Positions 17,292-45,546 of a stretch of DNA of 64,000 nt are shown one piece after another. The notes under the pieces are model-generated. The model was given only the letters and a program-made list of their open reading frames with translations, ran no database searches and was not told the origin of the DNA. The first letter of the stretch is position 1; every line of letters starts with the position of its first letter. A program made the translations under genes and the position numbers. Origin of the DNA: an uncultured Eubacteriales bacterium (GTDB lineage Bacteria > Acidobacteriota > Aminicenantia > Aminicenantales > Saccharicenantaceae); NCBI GenBank assembly GCA_964551995.1, contig CAZKFD010000011.1, forward strand, positions 43,374 through 107,373, written 5' to 3'.

Positions 17292-17417
17292 AAGACCTCC
17301 TTCCCGTTTTTTTCATCATATCATATTCGGGCGTTCGGGGCGAGTGGGGTCGGAGAAAAGATCAGCCGGCGCTGATTCCCTTTGCTGCGGCCGCGGGCCG
17401 CCCCTTTCGTCCCCCGC

Positions 17418-18020: not shown

Positions 18021-18180
18021 CGGACCGCTCCTTCGGAAAAGCCGGATTGGCAGACCCGATTATATCGGGATCGCGGGCCGTGGACAAGACCCCGGGCGCG
18101 GCCCCGCTTGGGGGGCGCCGGAGGCCCCTCATACCCAACAGGCCCCGAAAAGAGTAACATGGTGCGGAGAGGAAAACGGC

Positions 18181-18585
18181 ATGAACTGGGAATTCGAGGA
18201 TAACGGGCGTTGCTTCGTTTGTGGCGCGAACAACCCGGACGGGCTGAGGCTCGGCTTTAGGATAGACCGGGAGCGGGGCGAAGCGAAAGCGGAGGTCGAG
18301 TTTCCCGAGCGCTTCCAGGGGTGGGAAAGAACCGTCCATGGCGGGCTCCTGGCCACAGTCCTCGACGAGGCGATGATCTACGCCGCCGGCGCGAGGGGCT
18401 TCCGCTGTGTGACCGGAGAAATTACCATCCGCTATGTCAAGCCTTTCCGGACCGGCGCCCCGGGCACGGTCAAAGGCCGCTTTCTCGGGGACAAGGGCCG
18501 GATCGTCATGGCCGAGAGCGAGGTTGCGGACGTGAAGGGCGTCATCGCGGCCAGGGCCACGGGAAAGCTCTTCAAGCTCGCCTGA
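18181..18585 (+). CDS. hotdog-fold acyl-CoA thioesterase (PaaI/YbgC-like)
   Basis: MNWEFEDNGRCFVCGANNPDGLRL... with the HGG motif (RTVHGGLLATVLDEA). ATG is at 18181 with GGAGAGG upstream. The track's 17977 start adds 68 aa of non-coding sequence. Confidence 0.8.
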   Translation: MNWEFEDNGRCFVCGANNPDGLRLGFRIDRERGEAKAEVEFPERFQGWERTVHGGLLATVLDEAMIYAAGARGFRCVTGEITIRYVKPFRTGAPGTVKGRFLGDKGRIVMAESEVADVKGVIAARATGKLFKLA

Positions 18586-18624
18586 CCCGAACCCGGACCG
18601 CGGGCGCTTCGCGGGTCTTTCGAA

Positions 18625-19092
18625 TCACTGAACGGTGATGTTCGTTACGGCCGTCAAGCCCGGGTCGGGGGGTTCGCTCGTTATCCAAGCCCAGGCCATG
18701 TAAGGCCCCGGGGCCGCGGGCCGCCCGTCGTTGTCCTTGAGGTCCCAGGAGGCCGGCAGGATGCGGGACTCGCCAGGCGCCAGGCTCATGGACGTAAGAA
18801 CCTGGAGAAAGCCCTTGTCATGCGACCAGGCCCAGATCGTGCGCCCCAGGCTGTCGGCGACTTTGATATCGAAGGTCTGCGAGCTGGAGAAATTCGCCGT
18901 GACCTCTCTCGTGCCTGTGTTTTTGAGCGTGATCTCAAAGCTCAGGCCGTCCGTCTCTTGTTCTCCTACGGCTAAGTAAAGTCGAAGTCCCTGGACATAC
19001 AGCGAGCCGCTCAGAGCCTGCCCGGATTGGGACCGGCAGCAGGCACAGGCGATAAGGAGGACAATGCTGACAGAGATCGCCGCTTTTTTAAT
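18625..19092 (-). CDS. BsuPI-type intracellular proteinase inhibitor domain lipoprotein; apparent ATT initiation codon
   Basis: Absent from the ORF track. Minus-strand translation gives (I/M)KKAAISVSIVLLIAC (lipobox), then ...LSFEITLKNTGTREVTANFSSSQTFDIKVADSLGRTIWAWSHDKGFLQVLTSMSLAPGESRILPASWDL, which matches the BsuPI fold pattern. The frame opens just after a TAA stop. GGAGGA sits 5 nt before the ATT at 19092..19090. No in-frame ATG, GTG or TTG occurs before the signal peptide. Confidence 0.65.
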   Translation of the reverse strand: MKKAAISVSIVLLIACACCRSQSGQALSGSLYVQGLRLYLAVGEQETDGLSFEITLKNTGTREVTANFSSSQTFDIKVADSLGRTIWAWSHDKGFLQVLTSMSLAPGESRILPASWDLKDNDGRPAAPGPYMAWAWITSEPPDPGLTAVTNITVQ

Positions 19093-19174
19093 GCTTTCCT
19101 CCGATTTACCGATTTTTCCCCCCGGCCGGTCACTTTAAAAATAGCGCCCGAAGGGGAAGTTGTCAAGGCGCCGC

Positions 19175-19960
19175 CTATAGGAAGAAGCGGACGGCGACGA
19201 AAATGAGGAACAGGCCGTAGAGGAGCTTGACCGTGGCCGAGCGGAGCCGGATAGTGATCAGGGCCCCGATGACCGTACCTATAAAGAGGCCCAGGGCGAC
19301 CCAGGCCGCCGCGCCGAGGGCGAGCGTTCCCTGGTGGTAGTAGACGAGGACACCCGGCAGTCCGAACGGGGGGAGGATCGCCCCGAGGGATGTGGCAATA
19401 GCCCGCTTGGCCGGATAGCCGAGGACGAGCGCGAGCAGGGGGACGATGATGTTGCCGCCGCCGATGCCGAACATCCCGGCCATCACCCCGGCCAGAACAC
19501 CGACGGCCACGAGCGCCAGGGTATGAGGATGGGGAGAAGCTTCGGGTTCGGGCCTGGGCGGGACGTCCAGGCCCATGAGATGCCTGAGGAGGCGGACGGG
19601 TTCGATGAAGTTCCAGCTGACATACAGGCAAAAGACGGCGAAAAGCCTCCTTATGATCCCTACCGGCAGCGAGTTGGCGAGCCAGGCGCCGAGGGCCACC
19701 GAAGCCAGGATCCCGGCGGCGATGAGGAGGGAGGCCCGGACGTCGATGATTTTCGCCCGGTAATAGGCGATCACGCCAAGGATGCCGACGGGAAGCATGA
19801 TGGCGGCCAGGGATGTTCCCGTCGCCTTCACCAGCGGAAAACCGGCGAAAAGGATGAGAGCGGGAACGATGATGATGCCGCCGCCGATCCCGAAAAGCCC
19901 GGCGAACACTCCCGCCGCGGCGCCGACGGAAATGAGCCAGGGGCCGGTCATGGCAGCCAT
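19175..19960 (-). CDS. TauE/SafE (DUF81) family sulfite-exporter-like membrane protein
   Basis: MAAMTGPWLISVGAAAGVFAGLFGIGGGIIIVP... A second GMFGIGGGNIIVPLL repeat is present, typical of the duplicated 4-TM TauE fold. ATG at 19960..19958. The longer track ORF is an upstream extension. Confidence 0.85.
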   Translation of the reverse strand: MAAMTGPWLISVGAAAGVFAGLFGIGGGIIIVPALILFAGFPLVKATGTSLAAIMLPVGILGVIAYYRAKIIDVRASLLIAAGILASVALGAWLANSLPVGIIRRLFAVFCLYVSWNFIEPVRLLRHLMGLDVPPRPEPEASPHPHTLALVAVGVLAGVMAGMFGIGGGNIIVPLLALVLGYPAKRAIATSLGAILPPFGLPGVLVYYHQGTLALGAAAWVALGLFIGTVIGALITIRLRSATVKLLYGLFLIFVAVRFFL

Positions 19961-41398: not shown

Positions 41399-44300
41399 TC
41401 ACTCCGTCGCGCGGCGGCGGACCATCAGATAATAGAGCGTCGGCGTGGCGATGAGGGAGAGCAGGACCGAGATGCAGAGAGCGCCGATGACCGCCACGGC
41501 CAGGGGCTTCAACATGTCGGCGCCCGAGCCGACGCCGTAGGCCAGGGGCAGCATCCCGAGCGCGGCGGCCAGCGACGTCATCAGGACGGGACGGAGCCTG
41601 CGGAGCCCCGAGCGCACGACGGCCTCGGCCAGATTCAGGCCTTCGGCGCGGAGCTCCTTGACGAAATCTAGCATCAGGATGCCGTTCTTGGCGACGATGC
41701 CGATGCCGATGATGACCCCCAGCAGGGAGACGATGTTCAGCGACGTCCCCGTGATCCAGAGGGCAAGGACCGTTCCGAAGAGAGCCAGAACGGCGCCGAA
41801 CATGATGGCCACGGGCTCGTAAAAGGACCCGAACTCGAGGAGCAGCACGGTGAAGACCAGGAAGATGGCCATGCCCAGGACCATCATCAGATTGCGGAAC
41901 GACTCCTGCTGCTGCTCGTAGGTTCCTCCGTACTCGATCGCTCCCGGCGGCAGGGTCGGGTCCTTGCCGAGCGTCGCGCGGATTTCCGCCATGGCGCTTC
42001 CCATGTCGCGGCCTTCGAGGCGCGCCGAGACGGCCACGTCCTGACGGAAGCCGTCGCGCCGCAGCTCGAGCTGGCCGGGCTCCTCGACGACGTCGACGAC
42101 CTGGGAGAGCTGGACCAGCTGCCCGTCGGCGGTCCTCAGCGGGAGATGGCGGAGCTTCTCCACGCGGTCGATGTCGGAGGGCTCGGCCTTGACGCGGACG
42201 GCGACGACCCGGTCCCCTTCGAGTACTGTGGAGGCGGTCTCGCCGATCATCGCCGCGTTGACGGCCGAGGCAATGTCGTTGGCGGTCAGGCCGAACCGCT
42301 CGGCGTCGACATAGCACACCCGGAAGCTGATGGCGGGGCCGCAGTAGACCAGGCCGTTGAAGACGTCGACGACGCCCCTGATCTTGTCCAGTCGTTCCGC
42401 GATCTGGGGCGCCTTCTCCTTCAGATAGGCCGTGTCGGTGGAGAAGAGCTTGACCTCGATCGGCTGGGGCGCGTACATCAGGTCGCCGATGAGGTCGCTT
42501 AGGATGCCGGGGAATTCCCAGATGACGTCGGGCAGGGCGGCGTTGAGCCTGTGGCGCAGCTCGGTCAGGACCTCTTCGGTCGAGCGCTTGCGGTCGGGGC
42601 GCAGCTTCAGCAGGAAGTCGCCGTTGTTCGGTTCGGTGATGAAGAGGCCCAGCTGGGCGCCGGTGCGCCGGGAGTAGCTCTCAAGCTCCGGGACCGACCG
42701 GATGATGTCTTCGGCGTACTTGAGCTGGCGGTCGGTCTCGGCAAGGCTCGTCCCTGGCGGAGTGAGGTAGTCGATGACGAAGCCGCCCTCATCCATCGGC
42801 GGCAGGAACTCGCTTTCCAGGCTCTTATAGATGAAGGCCGAGAGGAAAAGGACGGCGGCGCAGGCGGCGATCGTCGGCCCGCCGTGCCGCAGGGCCGTCC
42901 GTACGCCTTTTTCGTAGATCCCTGTGACGCGCCGCAGCAAGCGGCCGCCCTGTTCCTTCGAAACCTCTCCGCCCGCCGGCTCACCTGGCTTCAGCAGCCA
43001 GGCGGCCAGGGACGGCGTCAGGGTCCCGGCCAGGGCCAGTGAGGTCAGCAGGGCGACGACCATGGTCATGGCCAGGGCGCGGAAGAAGACCCCGGGGATG
43101 CCCGTCAGGAAGGCCAGCGGGATGAAGACGACCACGGGGGTCAGGGTCGAGCCGATGAGGGGACGGAAGATCTCGCCGAGGCCCTCCCGGATGGCCGCCA
43201 GGGGACCGAGCCCGGCCGTCCGCTTGGTGTGGATGGCTTCGACGACGACGATGGCGTCGTCGATGACGAGACCGATGGCGGCGGCGATCCCGCCCAGGGT
43301 CATCAGGTTGAACGACATCCCGGCCGCCTTGATGGAGATCAGCGTGACGAGGACGGTGACGGGGATGACGAGGATGGCCACAAACGTCGTCCTCCAGCTC
43401 TTGAGGAAAAAGTACAGGATCAGGACGGACAGGATGAGCCCGAAGATGATGGCCTCCCAGACGCTGTGGACCGAAGCGCGGACGAGCAGGGACTGATCAT
43501 AAAAGAACGCCAGCCTCAGGTCGGGCGGCAACTCGTTCTTCAGGATTTTCAGCTCCTCCCGGAGGCGCCGGGCGATGTCGAGGGTGCTCCCGTCCGGCTG
43601 GCTGTAGATGTTGACGAGCACGGCCACTTTGCCGTCGGCGGTGACGATATTGAAGACCGGCTCGGGGCCCCGCACGACCCGCGCGAAATCGCGGACGAGG
43701 ACCGGGTGCTTGCCGGAGACCGTCACCGGGAAGTTCTCGATGTCCCGGATCGAGTGCACGCGGCCGTCGACCACGGCCAGATAGAGCATACGGTTCTCTT
43801 CGTGGAGTCCCGTCGACGCGACGAGGTTGTTCTTGTTGAGCGCGTCCGTGACTTCGGACAGGGTGAGGCCGGCCGCCTGGAGGCGGAGCGGGTCGACGAC
43901 GATGTGGTATTCGGGCGTGCGGCCGCCCACGAGGTCGGCGCGGGCGACGCCCGGGATCTGCAGGAACCGCGGCTTGAGCTGGTAGCGGGCGATCTCCCAG
44001 AGATCGATCAGGTTGCGCTTGGGGCTGGTCAGGCTGATGCCGATGATGGGGAAGTTCGAGAAGGTCACCCGGTAGACCTGGGCCTCGGCCGTGGCGGGGA
44101 GAGAGGCGCGGATCTGGGACAGCCGGCCGAGGACGTAGAGCTCCGACCGGATCATGTCGACCTTCCAGTTGAAGAAGATGTTGACCTCCGCCGAACCGCG
44201 CCCCGTGGCCGAACGGATCGTCGTCACCCCAGGAATGTCTTTCATGCTCTCTTCGATCGGCCGGGTGATGGTCGCCATCATCTCGTCGGCTGGCATCACT

Positions 44301-44476
44301 CCGTTGTCGACGAGAATGACGACGCGGGGGAAATTCGTCTGCGGGAAGACCGACGACGGGATGGTCAGGGCCGAGTAGACGCCGCCCAGGCAGAGGGCGA
44401 TGCTGATGAAGACGATGGGCAAAGCGTGACGCGTCGCGAACCGGCCGACGGCGGAATCTTTGGCCATGAACGTCAC
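41399..44476 (-). CDS. RND family efflux permease (CzcA/CusA-like, HME subgroup likely)
   Basis: 1025 aa with 12 TM helices and two large periplasmic loops. Typical AcrB/CzcA blocks are present. GTG start overlaps the upstream stop as GTGA. Confidence 0.9.
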   Translation of the reverse strand: MTFMAKDSAVGRFATRHALPIVFISIALCLGGVYSALTIPSSVFPQTNFPRVVILVDNGVMPADEMMATITRPIEESMKDIPGVTTIRSATGRGSAEVNIFFNWKVDMIRSELYVLGRLSQIRASLPATAEAQVYRVTFSNFPIIGISLTSPKRNLIDLWEIARYQLKPRFLQIPGVARADLVGGRTPEYHIVVDPLRLQAAGLTLSEVTDALNKNNLVASTGLHEENRMLYLAVVDGRVHSIRDIENFPVTVSGKHPVLVRDFARVVRGPEPVFNIVTADGKVAVLVNIYSQPDGSTLDIARRLREELKILKNELPPDLRLAFFYDQSLLVRASVHSVWEAIIFGLILSVLILYFFLKSWRTTFVAILVIPVTVLVTLISIKAAGMSFNLMTLGGIAAAIGLVIDDAIVVVEAIHTKRTAGLGPLAAIREGLGEIFRPLIGSTLTPVVVFIPLAFLTGIPGVFFRALAMTMVVALLTSLALAGTLTPSLAAWLLKPGEPAGGEVSKEQGGRLLRRVTGIYEKGVRTALRHGGPTIAACAAVLFLSAFIYKSLESEFLPPMDEGGFVIDYLTPPGTSLAETDRQLKYAEDIIRSVPELESYSRRTGAQLGLFITEPNNGDFLLKLRPDRKRSTEEVLTELRHRLNAALPDVIWEFPGILSDLIGDLMYAPQPIEVKLFSTDTAYLKEKAPQIAERLDKIRGVVDVFNGLVYCGPAISFRVCYVDAERFGLTANDIASAVNAAMIGETASTVLEGDRVVAVRVKAEPSDIDRVEKLRHLPLRTADGQLVQLSQVVDVVEEPGQLELRRDGFRQDVAVSARLEGRDMGSAMAEIRATLGKDPTLPPGAIEYGGTYEQQQESFRNLMMVLGMAIFLVFTVLLLEFGSFYEPVAIMFGAVLALFGTVLALWITGTSLNIVSLLGVIIGIGIVAKNGILMLDFVKELRAEGLNLAEAVVRSGLRRLRPVLMTSLAAALGMLPLAYGVGSGADMLKPLAVAVIGALCISVLLSLIATPTLYYLMVRRRATE

Positions 44477-45546
44477 TTGTCCCCGATGATGTGGATCTTC
44501 GTCTCCCCGGTGATGTTGTAGGCGTCCGTGGTGACGATGACCAGGCCCTCCTTGAGCCCTTCGCCCTCGACCTCGGCCAGGCCGGCGTCGCGGAGGCCGG
44601 CCTTGACGGGCCTGGGGATGGCCTTGTCGCCTTCGACGACCATCAGCACGGTCCCGCCGGCGGGGCTGGGAACGACGCTCTCTTCGGGGACGGCGAGGAC
44701 GTCGCGGCGCTCCTCCGAGACGATCCTGACGCTCAGGAACTGGCCAGGCTTGAATTGCGCCCTCACCGGCAGGGACGTTCGGACGAGCACCGTATCGGTC
44801 TTCGGGTCGATGTCCTTGCCGACGAGTATCAACGTTCCGTATCCCTGGACCCCGGGGCCGAAATCGACCGGCTGCCCGGTTTTGAGCGGGCCTGCGTCGC
44901 GGCTCGGGATCTGGGCCGTGAGCACGAGGCGGCTGAAGGCTATGACCTCGGCCAGGACCGCGCTCGGGTCGACGGTCTGGCCGATGCGGGCGTTGATCCG
45001 GACCACCGTCCCGGAAAGAGGCGCTTTGATCTCGAGATAGGACAAGTCTGTCCGTGCCGCGGCGAGGTCGTTCCGGGCCGCCTGGAGGGCGAGAGCTGCT
45101 TCCTGGACGGCCTTCTCCGAGGTCCCGCCGGCCGGGAGCAGTTTCTTCTGCCGTTCGTAGGTCTTTTCGGCGAAATCCAGCGCCTTTTCGGCCTTGGCCA
45201 CGGCGACTTCGGCCAAGCGCGTGTCGAGGCGGAAGAGGATTTCGCCGCGTTCGACGCGCTGCCCCTCCGTGCAGCGGATCTCGGTCAGGATGCCGCCCAG
45301 CGGAAACGACAGGTCGGCTCCCGCCGCGGGCCGCCCCTCGGACGGCGGCTCGGGCTCGACGGTTCCGTAGGCCGTAACGTAGTTCCGGAGAGTCGCCCGG
45401 GTGATCTTCCCGACATGAACGGCCACGTCGGTGACGACTTCCTCTTCCTCGCCGGCCTTGTGCCCCAGGCCCTTGATGAGGACGAGAACGGCCGCCGCGG
45501 CGACCGCCAGAACGATCAACGCGGTTATGGCCCTGCGTTTATTCAT
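44473..45546 (-). CDS. RND efflux membrane fusion protein (HlyD/CzcB family)
   Basis: N-terminal TM anchor, coiled-coil hairpin (VAVAKAEKALDFAEKTYERQKKLL...), then lipoyl and beta-barrel domains. Confidence 0.9.
   Translation of the reverse strand: MNKRRAITALIVLAVAAAAVLVLIKGLGHKAGEEEEVVTDVAVHVGKITRATLRNYVTAYGTVEPEPPSEGRPAAGADLSFPLGGILTEIRCTEGQRVERGEILFRLDTRLAEVAVAKAEKALDFAEKTYERQKKLLPAGGTSEKAVQEAALALQAARNDLAAARTDLSYLEIKAPLSGTVVRINARIGQTVDPSAVLAEVIAFSRLVLTAQIPSRDAGPLKTGQPVDFGPGVQGYGTLILVGKDIDPKTDTVLVRTSLPVRAQFKPGQFLSVRIVSEERRDVLAVPEESVVPSPAGGTVLMVVEGDKAIPRPVKAGLRDAGLAEVEGEGLKEGLVIVTTDAYNITGETKIHIIGDK

Follow-up and report, generated by a model that had tools for sequence, protein, structure and literature searches.

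At 18625..19092, the minus strand of the window (the whole stretch of 64,000 nucleotides analyzed here) encodes a small lipoprotein. The gene is genuine, conserved, and accessory, and its first codon is an ATT at the very position where its orthologues have an ATG. Comparison of the DNA with that of its relatives makes translation from this ATT, at reduced efficiency, the most probable reading, to which we assign a probability of roughly 0.6. NCBI, JGI, ENA, Logan, and GEM list this conserved 155-residue lipoprotein as a hypothetical protein of 54 residues, for no other reason than its ATT start codon.

As the original prediction had stated, the frame opens after a TAA, found at 19137-19135 on the minus strand, and it continues through 169 open codons to the TGA at 18627-18625 (Table 1). 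From the ATT at 19092-19090 onward the DNA continues KKAAISVSIVLLIAC, and the translation reads IKKAAISVSIVLLIAC... over 155 residues. The only open reading frame (ORF) listed in the BsuPI frame is one of 54 aa with an ATG start (18625..18789), which implies that no in-frame ATG, GTG, or TTG is present among the 115 codons that follow the TAA; none of these codons occurs before residue 102. The predicted absence of a canonical start ahead of the signal peptide is thus borne out.

Table 1. Features of the lipoprotein gene and its start region, in window coordinates
Feature	Position	Strand	Remarks
Full CDS, BsuPI-domain lipoprotein	18625..19092	-	155 codons + TGA; first codon ATT 19092-19090
Internal ATG (Met102), start used by gene callers	18787..18789	-	yields spurious 54-aa product
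BsuPI (PF12690) Ig-like beta-sandwich domain	18673..18963	-	residues 44-140
Predicted lipoprotein signal peptide, lipobox L-I-A-C	19045..19092	-	Cys16 codon TGT at 19047-19045
ATT at orthologues' ATG start position	19090..19092	-	derived G-to-T change at 19090
Shine-Dalgarno GGAGGA	19097..19102	-	4 nt upstream of ATT
In-frame near-cognate ATC	19111..19113	-	7 codons upstream of ATT, behind G-run
Upstream in-frame TAA	19135..19137	-	directly downstream of -10 box
Sigma-70-like promoter	19138..19166	-	TTGACA 19166-19161, 17-nt spacer, TATTTT 19143-19138

The 155-residue translation matches the Pfam BsuPI profile with an E-value of 2e-22 and a score of 79.5 bits (gathering cut-off 22.9 bits), where residues 44-140 align to positions 8-99 of the 101 in the profile. 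Such a score marks the frame as coding sequence rather than a chance open frame. An NCBIfam search of the same translation gave no significant match. Among solved structures, a sequence search of the PDB (phmmer) retrieved the Bacillus subtilis intracellular proteinase inhibitor (IPI), 3ISY, with an E-value of 4.9e-6 as the sole relative of significance. An AlphaFold2 model, built from a 22-sequence alignment, has a mean pLDDT of 79.6, with disorder over residues 1-28 and nine strands within residues 36-154; means over 10-residue blocks are about 86-94 for residues 31-155, save for a dip near residues 94-96. When this model was compared with the PDB by Foldseek, 3ISY again ranked first (E=1.3e-7, TM 0.82, target-normalized). 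By its profile score as well as by an Ig-like beta-sandwich that resembles 3ISY, the protein belongs to the BsuPI family.

The N-terminus has the makings of a lipoprotein signal peptide, as predicted from a charged n-region (K2 and K3), a hydrophobic h-region, and a lipobox cysteine that falls within residues 15-35. The stretch ISVSIVLLIAC (residues 6-16) fits the pattern {DERK}(6)-[LIVMFWSTAG](2)-[LIVMFYSTAGCQ]-[AGS]-C, which is of the PROSITE PS51257 type, and C16 is almost invariant in the 22-sequence orthologue alignment. Between them, the lipobox match and the Pfam score support the identification of a BsuPI-domain lipoprotein gene that the original prediction had put forward.

That the gene had been missed by ORF calling also proved right, with seven assemblies holding nothing but a 54-aa "hypothetical protein" at this place. 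The fragment (P0003) is recorded under that name in NCBI, JGI/IMG, Logan, ENA, and GEM. It could be argued that this annotated ORF is the real product, since the ATG at 18789 is the sole canonical start in the frame and every pipeline calls it. However, it begins in the middle of the beta-sandwich and removes more than half of the domain (residues 44-140), so it cannot be the real product, and we give it next to no credence. Besides, the fragment comes without a signal peptide, without a Pfam match, and without an SD-like sequence upstream; conservation of Met102 does not extend to distant orthologues, whereas the 101 codons that precede it are conserved as protein.

A further question was whether the ATT is there at all, as the original prediction had weighed genuine ATT initiation against a base error. 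In the case of a sequencing or assembly error, the true plus-strand base at 19090 would be a C, giving an ATG on the minus strand; the position adjoins an A6 homopolymer, and this one base change would restore a normal gene. However, exact look-ups with the window's flanking 4HBT and TauE proteins led to six other contigs (L004-L009), deposited in ENA (ERZ27251267, ERZ27251255, and ERZ27251294, with MEGAHIT-style k141 contig names), Logan (SRR7004205), and JGI (3300018086 and 3300035643), and all of these have the identical ATT. They are 99.5-100% identical to the window, from which five of the six differ by 1-17 substitutions or indels, and are thus separate assemblies of slightly different strains. 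All the differences fall outside 18436-19320. Over the 576 nt that span the gene and its leader, each of the six is 100% identical to the window, ATT included, and in every one of them the gene callers give only the 54-aa fragment, without a Pfam match. In addition, the version of the window protein with Met at residue 1 is absent among about 15 billion protein sequences. Because several sequencing efforts, in six further assemblies, arrived at the same base, and five of these assemblies have SNPs elsewhere, the base-error option can be put aside as extremely improbable. The ATT is a real genomic base, and it is fixed in the sampled population of one species-level uncultivated lineage.

As an aside, strain polymorphisms in the window cluster in intergenic DNA. 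SNPs are located downstream of the PRTase gene at 17373, 17374, 17376, 17397, and 17398, and a 1-nt C insertion is found at 18049, between the PRTase and 4HBT genes, in two assemblies (L004 and L008).

To place the ATT in an evolutionary context, we turned to the orthologues. A search covering 5.8 billion protein clusters delivered two close ones, P0001 and P0002, which are 81% and 71% identical to the window protein, have 155 aa each, are collinear with it from residue 1, and begin with MKKAAI. Their contigs are syntenic with the window, comprising GH127, TauE, BsuPI, the convergent 4HBT thioesterase, and PRTase. At the DNA level the start region reads ...gagATGaaaaaagca for P0001 and ...gacATGaaaaaagca for P0002, next to ...agcATTaaaaaagcg for the window; listed by locus, it is ...gggggagagATGaaaaaagca in L001, ...ggtggagacATGaaaaaagca in L002, and ...cggaggaaagcATTaaaaaagcg in the window. 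More distant syntenic orthologues were reached by using TauE homologues as handles. Here the start is ATG-AAA as well, preceded by GGGAGGGAG in L014-L016 and by GGGAGGGGG in L021, and found likewise in L023 and L024. All six syntenic orthologue lineages (L001, L002, L014, L021, L023, and L024) therefore have ATG, at the DNA level, at the position of the window's ATT. A profile search extended the orthologue group to 25 members, some 20 of which are full length (155-163 aa) and start with M-K-K/R, after which come a hydrophobic stretch and a Cys.

Since the orthologues start with ATG, this codon is the ancestral state, and the window's ATT is a derived third-position G-to-T change. The comparison of start codons across orthologues, which the original prediction had named as a check, thus turned out in its favor, as the ATT is homologous to the ATG start in every orthologue examined. 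It occupies the start that the orthologues define, and there is no canonical in-frame start that would keep the protein whole.

Other searches added less. A scan of genome contigs found only a 30%-identical Acidobacteriota relative (L003), which is uninformative for the start codon, and scans of metagenome contigs with peptide patterns and a 25-base start-region DNA pattern gave no matches, the relevant samples evidently lying outside that collection. For TauE, the nearest named relatives are 75-78% identical and come from "Candidatus Aminicenantes" metagenome-assembled genomes, with one from Terriglobales; the window thus probably belongs to an uncultivated, Aminicenantes-like representative of the Acidobacteriota. 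We also observed that orthologues with an ATG can be miscalled: the call at L014:3311-3835 is extended to 174 aa and runs into the promoter, that at L021:3434-3859 is cut to 141 aa at an internal ATG despite the upstream ATG that follows GGGAGGGGG, and that at L024:2496-2981 has 161 aa versus 155 aa in a sister contig.

The orthologues also bear on a second near-cognate codon in the frame. The ATT had been proposed as the only plausible start, and the orthologues agree with its position; taken literally, however, the claim overlooks the ATC at 19113-19111, which, apart from the ATT, is the one near-cognate codon that follows the TAA. Translation from this ATC would lengthen the signal peptide slightly (M-GKSEES-IKKAA...) and leave the mature protein the same. 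The codon is in frame, and the G-run in front of it is able to form a -9.4 kcal/mol duplex with the anti-SD at a 3-nt spacing. Against it, the orthologues begin at the codon homologous to ATT, and conservation of the reading frame breaks down upstream of that codon, where L002 carries a 2-nt indel and the ATC of L001 is out of frame. The orthologues thus have noncoding sequence ahead of the start, which argues against a start at the ATC. Furthermore, the canonical GGAGGA lies between the two codons and serves the ATT, and the extra acidic residues would be atypical of the n-region of a signal peptide. Taken together, we consider initiation at the ATC very unlikely.

The regulatory elements ahead of the ATT are intact. 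A Shine-Dalgarno (SD) sequence stands before it at a functional distance. The 5-nt spacing given in the original prediction applies to the GGAGG core, whereas the full GGAGGA leaves 4 nt. With this 4-nt spacer, the duplex of SD and anti-SD amounts to -9.5 kcal/mol, within the range of -8.6 to -12.9 for the orthologues. As the window's SD does not exceed in strength those of orthologues with an ATG, there is no sign of compensation, and we rejected the idea that the SD had been strengthened to make up for the ATT.

Further upstream, a promoter scan found a sigma-70-like site with 10 of 12 matches, compared with an average of 0.2 sites in shuffled sequences. Its TTGACA -35 box is invariant in the three close sequences and also occurs in L014, L021, L022, and L024. 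The TAA at 19137-19135 probably precedes the transcription start. At 19125-19132 (minus strand), shortly after the -10 box, there is an 8-mer, TGACCGGC, that the window shares unchanged with L001 and L002 amid varying flanks and that is absent from the distant orthologues. This 8-mer may serve as an operator or mark the transcription start, or may simply result from limited divergence. A regulatory RNA or structure in the leader was considered and rejected: an Rfam search of the 5' UTR returned nothing significant (the best hit, with E=0.47, was on the other strand), and the fold of the 5' UTR is no more stable than that of shuffled sequences (z=+0.97). A terminator scan between the convergent BsuPI and 4HBT genes likewise yielded nothing convincing.

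A window-wide control that sought other genes without canonical starts was uninformative because the GC-rich sequence yields about 100 long spurious open frames. The most striking of these, at 41399-45538 on the minus strand, was rejected, as its translation upstream of the start of an efflux pump is Arg-rich and not protein-like. In its part at 44477-45538 (minus strand), some 350 codons run without a stop or a canonical start before the RND efflux-pump start (MAKDSAVGRF...), and the Arg-rich translation suggests an out-of-frame reading of other sequence.

A real ATT at the site of an ancestral ATG may also signal a gene on its way out. Here, the ATG-to-ATT change would have knocked down a dispensable gene, of which the ORF is still intact because the event is young, and the ATT would have become fixed by drift or because loss was favored. 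This adds a third alternative to the two of the original prediction (genuine ATT start and base error), and we treat it as the main rival, possible though on balance less likely. The state of the coding sequence speaks against it. The window ORF is free of stops and frameshifts over its 155 codons and is collinear with the 155-aa orthologues, so that none of the usual marks of a pseudogene (frameshift, premature stop, or truncation) is present. Promoter, SD, and lipobox are intact too.

Substitution patterns point in the same direction. Pairwise dN/dS values (Nei-Gojobori) are 0.25 for the window and L002, 0.37 for the window and L001, and 0.49 for L002 and L001. With the start codon excluded, the window branch has 16 synonymous and 12 nonsynonymous changes of its own, very similar to the 15 and 13 on the ATG-bearing L002 branch and far from the neutral split of about 25:75 (p=3e-4), although the three close sequences are near-trichotomous by dS and the "window branch" may therefore include history that predates the lineage. 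The replacements on this branch are conservative (V/I, L/I, T/S, and A/V). These counts show purifying selection on the window branch, comparable to that on the sister branch with ATG, and a rough Poisson estimate from them puts the neutral share of the branch at no more than about 15-20%. The dN/dS does not approach 1, as relaxed selection would have it, but it is averaged over the whole branch and blind to very recent loss of function, which means that a very recent origin of the ATT, with drift since, would go undetected. Polymorphism within the lineage offers weak additional evidence: not a single SNP or indel is found in the gene's 576 nt across the seven genomes, where about 2.7 would be expected (p about 0.07), while 17 differences separate the most divergent strain from the window in 3670 nt elsewhere.

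On the other hand, the lipoprotein gene is accessory and dispensable, as can be seen from the variable TauE-PRTase interval among relatives. The window, L001, L014, and L022 have BsuPI plus the 4HBT thioesterase in this interval. In L017-L020 (3290-3419) there is neither gene, with TauE directly followed by PRTase; L025 (2290-2950) has the thioesterase only, and L021 (3434-5211) combines BsuPI with a chromate transporter. With the gene missing from this interval in some relatives (L017-L020 and L025), start loss as a first step of decay stays a candidate. The missing compensation in the SD fits such decay as well, and so does the extreme rarity of AUG-to-AUU changes in functional annotated genes, at 1 in 61,358 (PMC5622118).

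A further point in favor of decay is a second orthologue lineage in which one contig has ATA for ATG, plus a nonsynonymous SNP. Apart from this contig, the orthologue lineages other than that of the window all have ATG at the DNA level. This second near-cognate start, independent of the first, is located at L022:2370-2372, versus ATG at L023:2370-2372, within the same syntenic BsuPI orthologue group. L022 is a 62-kb contig from ENA (ERZ27247924) and L023 comes from JGI (3300032163); they differ at 3 positions in 2837 nt, 2 of which, the start codon and a site with an S/L change, fall in the BsuPI gene. The ATG allele also occurs in a Logan contig (P0126), whereas the ATA allele (P0125, called as 143 aa) is seen in one assembly only and is possibly an error there. 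Two start-codon changes among few lineages could mean that selection on a dispensable gene has been relaxed or that its output has been tuned down repeatedly, and the fact that both are near-cognate is statistically uninformative. It is conceivable, if rather improbable, that near-cognate starts repeatedly turn down this accessory lipoprotein in uncultivated Aminicenantes-like bacteria (with ATT fixed and ATA polymorphic in L022/L023). If true, this would be a case of start-codon tuning of a dosage-sensitive envelope protein, of a kind that is visible only by synteny, since annotation pipelines discard such genes.

We thus prefer translation from the ATT with lowered output. In this scenario, the gene would be transcribed from its own sigma-70-type promoter, the GGAGGA would position the 30S subunit, and the initiator tRNA would pair with AUU despite a mismatch at the third position. 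An fMet-initiated precursor would then be exported, lipidated at Cys16, and cleaved. Given cleavage at Cys16, the mature protein would be unchanged and only its amount lowered, to a large extent. It also speaks against decay that a near-cognate ATT still initiates at a low level, so that the gene would not be silenced outright. Both initiation at the ATT and the reduced output are what we infer from the start region and its orthologues.

The case illustrates how noncanonical starts can hide real genes in metagenome-assembled genomes, and its main value is practical. It does not reveal a new mechanism; the event is rare and the phenomenon already known. Nonetheless, it is a clean, polarized natural example of an ATG-to-ATT change, of which the ancestral state is known, the derived state is fixed in the population, and the ORF appears to be under purifying selection. 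As such, it could be used to gauge near-cognate initiation with a good SD outside model organisms.

Regarding the protein itself, the closest characterized system is IPI of B. subtilis, reported as an inhibitor of the subtilisin Isp1 (PMC3901451). The window protein shares its domain by HMM (PF12690) and its Ig-like beta-sandwich by predicted fold (3ISY). Many members of the family, possibly including IPI, have signal peptides and are extracytoplasmic, and the window protein likewise bears a signal peptide; whether the family consists of true inhibitors or of general protein-binding Ig-like modules is debated, with many members being secreted (PMC3901451). Unlike IPI, to which it is only about 25% identical, the window protein is predicted to be lipid-anchored and comes from a Gram-negative-type uncultivated lineage. 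There is also no adjoining subtilisin gene: the genes nearby are those for TauE, the 4HBT thioesterase, PRTase, and GH127 glycosidases, and no protease or subtilisin gene is found among the neighbors of the BsuPI gene. Going by family membership alone, the protein would bind or inhibit an extracytoplasmic protease or another partner, as proposed for IPI.

As for the start codon, the AUU of infC is conserved and underlies IF3 autoregulation, while that of pcnB limits a toxic enzyme. As in these two Escherichia coli genes, the window has a near-cognate AUU after the SD site of a normal protein-coding gene, and low translation initiation, as seen with the AUU of infC and pcnB, is predicted for it too. 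The likeness to infC ends there. The window's ATT is confined to one species-level lineage, at least 99.5% identical, and ATG is the start of the orthologues, which leaves no evident regulatory logic; the infC-style autoregulation that had been raised as an analogy found no support, and we rejected it, as the ATT is conserved in no other species. The confirmed AUU starts of E. coli are those of infC and pcnB, with near-cognate codons yielding 1-2% of the output of AUG (bioRxiv 10.1101/063800).

Another parallel is provided by ebpA of Enterococcus faecalis, which encodes a pilus tip protein. Its ATT start attenuates output and the annotated downstream ATG is wrong, as established by mutagenesis and lacZ fusions (PMC4447247). 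In both cases the gene codes for an exported or surface protein, the ATT is situated upstream of the signal peptide, and a downstream ATG has been annotated instead. The proteins are unrelated, though, and the ATT start was shown by experiment for ebpA, whereas for the window gene it is predicted from sequence. Finally, Belinky, Rogozin and Koonin (2017) counted 1 AUG-to-AUU switch in 61,358 ancestral AUG starts, working from annotated starts (PMC5622118). Like the case in their survey, ours is a natural replacement of AUG by AUU that was reconstructed from close relatives; unlike theirs, annotation does not show it, and it came to light through synteny.
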